Of a DNA stretch of 8,681 nt, positions 133-5,929 are shown piece by piece (positions within the stretch are counted from its first letter, which is position 1; the number at the start of each line of letters is the position of its first letter). A model generated the notes under the pieces. It made no database searches, had not been told where the DNA came from, and saw only the letters and a program-made list of their open reading frames with translations. Position numbers and translations under genes: made by a program. Source of the DNA: a virus (lineage: Duplodnaviria > Heunggongvirae > Uroviricota > Caudoviricetes); the IMG/VR virus record IMGVR_UViG_2778261165_000009. One strand, 5' to 3'.

Positions 133-555
133 ATGTTTCTGAAAACAGAACAATTTGAATATAACGGTGTGTCCGTCACGCTTTCCGAATTGTCTGCGCT
201 GCAGCGGTTTGATTATATAAAGTTTGTTTCAGACGCAGAACAACAGGAGACAACGAAGCATTATGTCGTGCACATTAACCAGCGATATCTGGAAACGGCA
301 TCCCTGCTTGTGGCGATGTCGCTATGGCATTCCCATTCCCTCAAAGGCACTCTGGCCTCTCCGGAGACAGAGATGCAGCAGATCCGCCGTGAAGTGATGC
401 TGGGATGGCCTGCTGATGCACTGAATCAGGCAACGAACCGGGTGCTTTATCTTTCAGGTATGCTGGATAACCGGCACGATGCCGATCCTGAACAAACCGG
501 GAAAGCAGAAGCGACTGAGCCGGTAACATCAAAAAAGCATTCGAAGGCGAGCTGA
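133..555 (+). CDS. G: Tail assembly chaperone G (140 aa)
   Basis: ATG 133 with SD; the 140-aa product begins MFLKTEQFEYNGVSVTLSELSALQR, recognisably lambda gpG-like, and has the same length as lambda G. It sits immediately upstream of the -1 frame T ORF and ends at TGA 553-555. Confidence 0.93.
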   Translation: MFLKTEQFEYNGVSVTLSELSALQRFDYIKFVSDAEQQETTKHYVVHINQRYLETASLLVAMSLWHSHSLKGTLASPETEMQQIRREVMLGWPADALNQATNRVLYLSGMLDNRHDADPEQTGKAEATEPVTSKKHSKAS

Positions 556-3914: not shown

Positions 3915-4612
3915 TGCAGGATATCCGGCAGGAAACATTGAATGAATGCACCCGTGCGGAGCAGTCGGCCAGCGTGGTGCTCTGGGAAATCGATCTGACA
4001 GAGGTCGGTGGAGAACGTTATTTTTTCTGTAATGAGCAGAACGAAAAAGGTGAGCCGGTCACCTGGCAGGGGAGGCAGTATCAGGCGTATCCCATTCAGG
4101 GGAGCGGTTTTGAACTGAATGGCAAAGGCACCAGTACGCGCCCCACGCTGACGGTTTCTAACCTGTACGGTATGGTCACCGGGATGGCGGAAGATCTGCA
4201 GAGTCTGGTCGGCGGAACGGTGGTCCGGCGTAAGGTTTACGCCCGTTTTCTGGATGCGGTGAACTTCGTCAACGGAAACAGTGACGCCGATCCGGAGCAG
4301 GAGGTGATCAGCCGCTGGCGCATCGAGCAGTGCAGCGAACTGAGCGCGGTGAGTGCCTCCTTTGTACTGTCCACGCCGACGGAAACGGATGGCGCTGTTT
4401 TTCCGGGACGTATCATGCTGGCCAACACCTGCACCTGGACCTATCGCGGTGACGAGTGCGGTTATAGCGGTCCGGCTGTCGCGGATGAATATGACCAGCC
4501 GACGTCCGATATCACGAAGGATAAATGCAGCAAATGCCTGAGTGGCTGTAAGTTTCGCAATAACGTCGGCAACTTTGGCGGCTTCCTTTCCATTAACAAA
4601 CTTTCGCAGTAA
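3914..4612 (+). CDS. L: Tail tip assembly protein L (232 aa), with a C-terminal Cys cluster
   Basis: 232 aa, the same length as lambda gpL. Start overlaps the M stop as TGATG. The C-terminal cysteines (CTWTYRGDECGYSG ... KDKCSKCLSGCKF) are consistent with the reported iron-sulfur cluster site of gpL. Confidence 0.92.
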   Translation: MQDIRQETLNECTRAEQSASVVLWEIDLTEVGGERYFFCNEQNEKGEPVTWQGRQYQAYPIQGSGFELNGKGTSTRPTLTVSNLYGMVTGMAEDLQSLVGGTVVRRKVYARFLDAVNFVNGNSDADPEQEVISRWRIEQCSELSAVSASFVLSTPTETDGAVFPGRIMLANTCTWTYRGDECGYSGPAVADEYDQPTSDITKDKCSKCLSGCKFRNNVGNFGGFLSINKLSQ

Positions 4613-4616
4613 TCCC

Positions 4617-5360
4617 ATGACACAGACAGAATCAGCGATTCTGGCGCATGCCCGGCGGTGTGTGCCTGCGGAGTCGTGCGGCTTCGTGGTGAGAACGCCG
4701 GAGGGGGAGCGGTATATCCCTTGTGTGAATATCTCTGCAGAGCCGGAGGCGTATTTTCGTATTGCACCGGAAGACTGGCTGCGGGCAGAGATGCAGGGGG
4801 AGATTGTGGCACTGGTCCACAGTCATCCCGGTGGTCTGCCCTGGCTGAGTGAGGCCGACCGGCGGCTGCAGGTGCAGAGTGATTTGCCGTGGTGGCTGGT
4901 CTGCCGGGGGGCGATTCATAAGTTCCGCTGTGTGCCGCATCTCACCGGGCGGCGCTTTGAGCACGGGGTGACGGACTGTTACACGCTGTTCCGGGATGCT
5001 TATCATTTGGCGGGGATTGAGATGCCGGATTTTCATCGCGAGGATGACTGGTGGCGTAACGGTCAGAATCTCTATCTGGATAATCTGGAGGCCACAGGGT
5101 TGTATCAGGTGCCGTTGTCATCAGCACAACCGGGCGATGTGCTGCTGTGCTGTTTTGGTTCATCGGTGCCGAATCATGCCGCCATTTACTGTGGTAATGG
5201 CGAGCTGCTGCACCATATTCCTGAACAACTGAGCAAACGAGAGAGGTATACCGACAAATGGCAGCGACGCACACACTCCCTCTGGCGTCACCGGGCATGG
5301 CGCGCATCTGCCTTTACGGGGATTTGCAACGATTTGGCCGCCGCATCGACCTTCGTGTGA
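4617..5360 (+). CDS. K: Tail tip assembly protein K, long form (247 aa): N-terminal JAB/MPN metalloprotease-like domain plus C-terminal NlpC/P60 domain
   Basis: ATG 4617 is 4 nt after the L stop with no strong SD, suggesting coupling. JAB motifs are E-S-C-G (4671-4682) and H-S-H-x7-S-x2-D (HSH at 4818-4826). NlpC/P60-like Cys (TDCYTL, Cys codon 4977-4979) and His (PNHAAIY, 5175-5177) are present. The listed ORF 4542-5360 starts inside L, so the first ATG after the L stop is taken as the start. Confidence 0.85.
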   Translation: MTQTESAILAHARRCVPAESCGFVVRTPEGERYIPCVNISAEPEAYFRIAPEDWLRAEMQGEIVALVHSHPGGLPWLSEADRRLQVQSDLPWWLVCRGAIHKFRCVPHLTGRRFEHGVTDCYTLFRDAYHLAGIEMPDFHREDDWWRNGQNLYLDNLEATGLYQVPLSSAQPGDVLLCCFGSSVPNHAAIYCGNGELLHHIPEQLSKRERYTDKWQRRTHSLWRHRAWRASAFTGICNDLAAASTFV

Positions 5361-5929
5361 AAACGGGGGCTGAAGCCATCCGCGCACTGGCCACACAGCT
5401 CCCGGCGTTTCGTCAGAAACTGAGCGACGGCTGGTATCAGGTACGGATTGCCGGGCGGGACGTCAGCACGTCCGGGTTAACGGCGCAGTTACATGAGACT
5501 CTGCCTGACGGCGCTGTGATTCATATTGTTCCCAGAGTCGCCGGGGCCAAGTCAGGGGGCGTATTCCAGATTGTTCTGGGGGCTGCCGCCATTGCCGGAT
5601 CATTCTTTACTGCCGGAGCCACCCTTGCAGCATGGGGGGCAGCCATTGGGGCCGGTGGTATGACCGGTATCCTGTTTTCTCTCGGTGCCAGTATGGTGCT
5701 CGGTGGTGTGGCGCAGATGCTGGCACCGAAAGCCAGGACGCCCACGGCAGCAAGTACAGATAACGGCAAACAGAACACCTATTTCTCCTCACTGGATAAC
5801 ATGGTTGCCCAGGGCAATGTTCTGCCGGTTCTGTACGGTGAAATGCGCGTGGGGTCACGCGTGGTTTCTCAGGAGATCAGCACGGCAGACGAAGGGGATG
5901 GTGGTCAGGTTGTGGTGATTGGTCGCTGA
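5258..5929 (+). CDS. I: Tail assembly protein I (223 aa): N-terminal ubiquitin-like domain plus C-terminal Gly/Ala-rich hydrophobic segment
   Basis: 223 aa, the same length as lambda gpI. Start ATG 5258 has GAGAGG 11 nt upstream. It overlaps the K 3' end by 103 nt in a different frame. The C-terminal half (VFQIVLGAAAIAGSFFTAGATLAAWGAAIGAGGMTGILFSLGASMVLGG) is hydrophobic. Confidence 0.9.
   Translation: MAATHTLPLASPGMARICLYGDLQRFGRRIDLRVKTGAEAIRALATQLPAFRQKLSDGWYQVRIAGRDVSTSGLTAQLHETLPDGAVIHIVPRVAGAKSGGVFQIVLGAAAIAGSFFTAGATLAAWGAAIGAGGMTGILFSLGASMVLGGVAQMLAPKARTPTAASTDNGKQNTYFSSLDNMVAQGNVLPVLYGEMRVGSRVVSQEISTADEGDGGQVVVIGR

Follow-up and report, generated by a model that had tools for sequence, protein, structure and literature searches.

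Protein K of bacteriophage lambda (gpK, also called TAPK) is the closest described counterpart of the gene analysed here. Its architecture, a JAB domain joined to an NlpC/P60 domain, and its linkage to the ubiquitin-like gene I were described by Iyer, Burroughs and Aravind in 2006, together with the proposal that K processes the product of I (PMC1779556). Lambda gpK is required for tail assembly and is absent from virions (PMC10721106, PMC12617516), and in the tail tip only residues 135-223 of gpI are resolved (PMC10721106). These virion data are compatible with, but no proof of, the removal of the ubiquitin-like domain of gpI. An experimental demonstration of K peptidase activity, or of gpI as its substrate, was not found in the literature searched, and the start of K goes undiscussed in the literature examined on lambda ribosome profiling and on the lambda interaction map. 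In the lambda reference sequence, NC_001416, K is annotated at 14276..14875 as a protein of 199 aa.

The window, by which we mean the whole stretch of 8,681 nucleotides analysed, carries on its + strand a lambda-type tail module, with genes G, T, H (870 aa), M, L, K and I followed by the start of J (Table 1). As the first-pass annotation had read from the letters, the K frame is open from an ATG right after the L stop; it continues to the TGA at 5358-5360, and its translation is a protein of 247 aa and 28.2 kDa. The K region is 100% identical to prophages of three E. coli chicken isolates, and the identical DNA in RefSeq is a 744-nt CDS (WP_263774655.1, "C40 family peptidase", 247 aa). This long-form architecture of K is already known (2006, PMC1779556) and already annotated, correctly, in RefSeq; for the window itself nothing changes. 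Our main reading, to which we assign a probability of about 0.9, is that K is translated from ATG 4617, probably coupled to L, as a single 247-aa JAB and NlpC/P60 assembly factor of a lambda-like E. coli prophage.

Table 1. Features of the window bearing on gene K and its neighbours
Feature	Position	Strand	Description	Evidence or context
Gene G	133-555	+		Tail module
Gene L stop codon	4610..4612	+	TAA	In the identical prophage, RefSeq ends L at the equivalent base
Gene K	4617..5360	+	247 codons + TGA; tail tip assembly protein K (JAB + NlpC/P60)	
K start codon	4617..4619	+	ATG	4 nt past the L stop
JAB/MPN domain	4623..4910	+	Residues 3-98	Pfam, 2KKS alignment, Foldseek
E-S-C-G	4671..4682	+	Codons 19-22, with the JAMM catalytic Glu19	Conservation in homologues
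GGAGG	4745..4749	+	Incidental Shine-Dalgarno-like pentamer within CCG-GAG-GCG (Pro43-Glu44-Ala45)	
Codon 49	4761..4763	+	ATT (Ile)	Aligned with the ATG annotated as K start in NC_001416
HSHx7SxxD	4818..4859	+	H-S-H-PGGLPWL-S-EA-D, codons 68-81; zinc-binding half of the JAMM motif	
NlpC/P60 (C40) peptidase domain	4947..5288	+	Residues 111-224	Pfam, conservation, Foldseek
Gene I	5258..5929	+	223-aa ORF; ubiquitin-like tail assembly protein, proposed K substrate	Pfam Lambda_tail_I

Because no Shine-Dalgarno sequence precedes ATG 4617, initiation at this codon would depend on translational coupling to L. Such coupling is likely, given this absence, the 4-nt gap between L and K, the arrangement in distant homologues, where the ATG of K either overlaps the stop of the ORF in the L position or adjoins it (CTGATG), and the finding from sequence comparison that the in-frame upstream extension of K is not conserved. 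That extension reaches GTG 4542 inside gene L, and the ORF listing confirms that the K frame is open so far upstream, from where a product of 272 aa could be made. A start there is nevertheless barely credible: the 25-codon extension would overlap L, a one-base intergenic indel cuts it to 7 codons in lambda-type sequences, and RefSeq places the start of K at the ATG. Moreover, homologues of the family have only about 14-25 residues ahead of the catalytic Glu; the count, 14-25 in most cases and matched by K of the window, comes from 112 distant homologues, representatives of 50%-identity clusters that are 36-59% identical to the query. A promoter and terminator scan of positions 4300-5500 gave counts that differ from those expected after shuffling by no more than about 1 standard deviation; a weak hairpin over the GGAGG pentamer was among the hits.

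Comparative sequence data and a structure model show the first 48 codons to be protein-coding, as a predicted part of the JAB domain. Residues 3-98 align with the Prok-JAB profile of Pfam (PF14464), over profile positions 3-103 of 114, with a score of 54.2 bits (cut-off 25). In the 199-aa lambda model, profile positions 63-112 alone remain and the score, 23.3 bits, drops under the cut-off. For codons 2-48, dN/dS against ten close relatives is 0.05-0.17, by which measure these codons are under strong purifying selection; a lack of conservation here, which the first-pass annotation had named as an observation contrary to the long form, was not seen. Indeed E19, C21 and G22 are invariant in 53/53 close sequences (69-96% identity). 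The homologue alignment that had been proposed as a check places a conserved E-x-C-G upstream of the HxH in the distant set as well, with E19 in 106/112, C21 in 101/112 and G22 in 108/112 sequences. The zinc-binding half is similarly maintained (H68 108/112, H70 107/112, S78 101/112, D81 108/112), so that K holds a complete JAMM motif, E19, H68, H70, S78 and D81, each residue being present in at least 101 of the 112. Residues 7-105 of K align with the solved JAB domain 2KKS, which carries a P-x-E-x-C-G of its own. A weak NCBIfam match to desampylase (30 bits) lies far under the family cut-off of 130.

An AlphaFold2 model of K, built from a 93-sequence alignment, has a pLDDT of 96.5 and a pTM of 0.90. 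Residues 1-48 form in it a helix (3-15) and two strands (21-27 and 30-36), and a start at residue 49 would consequently cost the protein not only the catalytic Glu but also three secondary-structure elements of the JAB fold. In Foldseek searches the JAB half matches PfJAMM1 (5ld9/5lda) with a target TM-score of 0.68 and an rmsd of 2.5-2.7 Å over about 110 columns, and further matches are Rpn11, CSN5 and AMSH. The C-terminal half is recognized as NlpC/P60 by Pfam (PF00877, 50.4 bits against a cut-off of 23), and its part of the model matches MepS/Spr and Acd33800. Its putative catalytic residues, Cys121 (4977-4979), His187 (5175-5177) and His199 (5211-5213), are at least 90% conserved in the homologue alignments. 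The first-pass annotation had located E-S-C-G, HSHx7SxxD, the ATT at codon 49 and the GGAGG pentamer correctly, and had argued that the two motifs together complete a JAB/MPN active site; Pfam, conservation and fold agree with this. They are joined by dN/dS, the homologues and 2KKS in favouring its further claim that K is the 247-aa two-domain form and that a 199-aa model loses a catalytic residue.

It may still be asked whether K starts at or near codon 49, with codons 1-48 left untranslated or forming a separate small ORF. NC_001416, UniProt-style annotations and several phage records do give a 199-aa K, and a PHROGs family of 76 positions (phrog_7305), which we suspect to derive from split-gene calls, matches residues 1-76. 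Against such a short form stand the selection on codons 2-48 and the invariant JAB residues encoded there, and codon 49 of the window offers none of the usable start codons ATG, GTG or TTG. The lambda model itself, furthermore, can be traced to a single base omitted from the reference, and we consider a genuinely short K very improbable.

The omission becomes apparent once the two sequences are aligned. The ATG of the reference annotation falls opposite the ATT of the window, which bears out the statement, in the first-pass annotation, that lambda annotates the Met start of a 199-aa K at codon 49. A one-base gap precedes it, GGAGGC-TATTTCC in NC_001416 standing against GGAGGCGTATTT in the window. 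The missing G falls at 14266^14267 of J02459/NC_001416, aligned with window 4750-4751, and the upstream K frame of NC_001416 runs into a stop. With the G in place, the lambda K frame runs open from ATG 14133 for 247 aa. The extra G is found in OM418625, a modern sequence of lambda imm21, and over this stretch the with-G version is matched at 100% identity by 22 phage records; they include the independent lambda resequences PV340536, KT232076, LC730321 and OM418625-7, as well as DE3 (of BL21(DE3)), HK629 and HK630. Only J02459/NC_001416 and the lambda records OR474059 and OR974322, which give the same 306-base, 99.7% match, are without it. The G is likewise present in all 24 lambda-identical loci of genome_contigs, most of them low-coverage lambda contaminants of unrelated assemblies, and in 29 of 30 fetched loci that span the junction, NC_001416 alone lacking it. 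We take the missing base to be the one given as 14266_14267insG by suppliers of commercial lambda DNA; a literature search for the 14266 insertion and a revised K length returned nothing relevant.

On this comparison of sequences, the 199-aa lambda K does not reflect a short form made in nature but is an artefact of one base omitted from the 1982 reference: with the base gone, the K frame is broken and the internal ATG is left as the only available start, hence the 199-aa model. A programmed frameshift, or a genuine frameshift of the laboratory strain, was also considered as an explanation and was rejected, since the resequenced lambdas and the 24 lambda-identical loci all carry the G. As a side observation, contigs of lambda DNA at low coverage turn up in assemblies that bear labels such as Neobacillus, Pseudomonas, Shewanella, Bradyrhizobium and Streptomyces, and several of these contigs are about 48.4 kb long with coverage near 1 (L008-L020, L029, L031, L033, L034, L038, L040 and others). 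They are almost certainly sequencing-control contamination, and as such provide a handy set of independent lambda sequences.

The annotation of K varies across records. It is given as 744 nt (247 aa) in PV340536 (2025; 34915..35658) and ev207 and still as 199 aa in the DE3, HK629 and lambda imm21 records, of which DE3 and HK629 bear notes pointing to the lambda reference proteins; KT232076 annotates K from a third start. About 11,000 sequences in four clusters (P0058, P0060, P0064 and P0078) have a K of 199 aa. In relatives with an ATG at codon 49, gene callers often choose this form. In a Logan contig from SRR11074165 (L066:457-1200), the 199-aa K is called from an internal ATG preceded by a Shine-Dalgarno sequence, although the ATG adjacent to L opens a frame of 247 aa. 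That these clusters represent real truncations was therefore rejected, the long frame being open in the one contig examined, and on the same single contig the large clusters are explained by the gene caller's choice of the internal ATG.

Codon 49 had been viewed in the first-pass annotation as an altered lambda start codon behind a retained Shine-Dalgarno sequence, with low-level internal initiation of an NlpC/P60-only short form as a possible outcome. These suggestions are not supported. Among the 112 distant homologues, position 49 is Ile in 72, Met in 15, Leu in 12 and Val in 6; among close homologues it is Ile in 24, Met in 24, Leu in 4 and Val in 1, and Met is found mostly in the lambda clade and in some Salmonella and Citrobacter relatives. 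Judged by these alignments, position 49 lies in the JAB domain and takes hydrophobic residues, with Ile as the family consensus and Met as a minority state, and for this reason the ATT is not a degraded or lost start. The GGAGG is a by-product of the Pro-Glu codons (CCG-GAG-G) and occurs at chance frequency: the + strand of the window has 24 copies, three of them inside K, against about 22 expected from base composition. The pentamer is kept in the ten lambda-clade loci examined at the DNA level, is missing from Citrobacter K, which has ATG at codon 49, and is absent from ten loci of 46-50% identity with Ile codons at this position.

Very few E. coli genes, infC among them, are known to start at AUU, which reaches a small fraction of the efficiency of AUG. 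The case for two products, mostly full-length K and, from ATT 4761 by means of the GGAGG, a minor 199-aa isoform (a JAB remnant with NlpC/P60), draws on the position of the pentamer 11 nt ahead of codon 49, on the ATG that follows it in the ten lambda-clade relatives, and on the preference of gene callers for this GGAGG-ATG pair even where the long frame is open. However, ATT is a very poor initiator, a spacing of 11 nt exceeds the usual optimum, and neither the pentamer nor a start codon is conserved beyond the lambda clade or beyond coding need, position 49 being mostly Ile. According to the model, a product beginning at residue 49 would also contain an unfoldable JAB remnant, short of one helix and two strands. 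Internal initiation in the window is thus unsupported, in view of a pentamer at chance frequency that is missing outside the lambda clade and a near-inactive ATT start, and we hold the two-product reading to be very unlikely. A related idea is that those lambda-clade phages with GGAGG, 11 nt and ATG do initiate internally and make, beside full-length K, a 199-aa isoform without a working JAB domain, and that the ATT allele of the window would be a natural variant lacking it. This too we find very unlikely. The ATT allele is common to several E. coli prophage clusters, and, if the idea were true, the short form would be either dispensable or regulatory.

Two other places in the module raise questions of annotation. 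Gene I, in its longer 223-aa form, shares about 100 nt with the end of K, read in another frame, and its start presents the mirror image of the K problem. Pfam Lambda_tail_I matches residues 14-97 of the 223-aa ORF at 100 bits, over profile positions 2-83. RefSeq and PV340536 start the gene at a GTG overlapping the K stop, and in the resulting 190-aa protein the match shrinks to profile positions 26-83 (69 bits), with roughly the first 25 positions lost. A GAGAGG stands 11 nt upstream of ATG 5258, and the alternative starts are ATG 5297 and GTG 5357. At the boundary of G and T, the likely site of the G-T -1 frameshift is A-AAA-AAG at 531-537, which keeps register with the frame of G; the frame of T is open from 519 on. 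GGGAAAG at 499-505 is out of register, and a -1 frame stop follows at 516-518. RefSeq has T as a separate ORF from ATG 582, with no G-T fusion.

The following picture of K may be proposed. Ribosomes ending L would reinitiate at ATG 4617, four bases downstream. Residues 1-48 would supply helix 1, strands 1 and 2 and the catalytic Glu19 of a JAB/MPN+ metallopeptidase domain, the rest of whose active site is predicted to be H68, H70, S78 and D81, and codon 49 would be a plain Ile codon inside this fold. Fused to the JAB domain, the C-terminal part of K would be a cysteine peptidase domain of the NlpC/P60 type, with C121, H187 and H199. [quoted passage not shown] Both the catalytic activity of K and the role of gpI as substrate are here inferred.

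For lambda, the result has a practical side. J02459/NC_001416, the lambda reference in widest use, still gives the 199-aa model, as do records whose annotation was transferred from it (DE3, HK629 and lambda imm21 among them). This model lacks a third of the JAB domain together with the catalytic Glu, and the 247-aa protein should be used for cloning, modelling or mutating lambda K or for testing whether K processes I. More widely, the locus is a reminder that the K of the lambda reference is truncated by a single missing base.

Compared with known systems, K of the window is nearest to lambda K: in the resequenced lambdas this protein is 95% identical to it throughout residues 1-247, and the two share the JAB and NlpC/P60 architecture (PMC1779556). 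It also shares the gene order G/T-H-M-L-K-I-J, with K between L and I/J, and the PHROGs family phrog_30, "minor tail protein", matches it at E = 7e-164. In contrast to lambda, which has Met (ATG) at residue 49 and an L-K spacer of 5 nt, the window has Ile (ATT) there and a spacer of 4 nt, and the lambda reference differs further in its 199-aa K, a result of the missing G. Relative to lambda-clade K, dS is 0.45-0.59 in the first 48 codons and 0.05-0.28 in the rest, and this higher dS in 4617-4760 than in 4761-5357 suggests a recombination joint near codon 49. The block 4617-4760 holds the variants A41, I34 and I49, which are also found in several E. coli clusters (P0009, P0017, P0021-22 and P0025).

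The prokaryotic JAMM/MPN+ isopeptidases (PfJAMM1, 5ld9/5lda; AfJAMM; haloarchaeal desampylase) resemble K in the E...HxHx7SxxD motif and in fold, and K shares with them a genomic association with a ubiquitin-like protein ending in Gly, in this case gpI (PMC1779556). However, K is only about 20% identical to these enzymes, its JAB domain is fused to a second peptidase domain, no E1-type activating enzyme is encoded near it, and its activity is predicted. Similarly, the NlpC/P60 (C40) endopeptidases, such as E. coli MepS/Spr and C. difficile Acd33800, are like K in their Pfam match, conserved Cys and His residues and fold. Unlike them, K is a cytoplasmic phage assembly factor with neither a signal peptide nor a cell-wall-binding module, and the substrate of its NlpC/P60 domain is probably a protein, either gpI or another tail component, rather than peptidoglycan.
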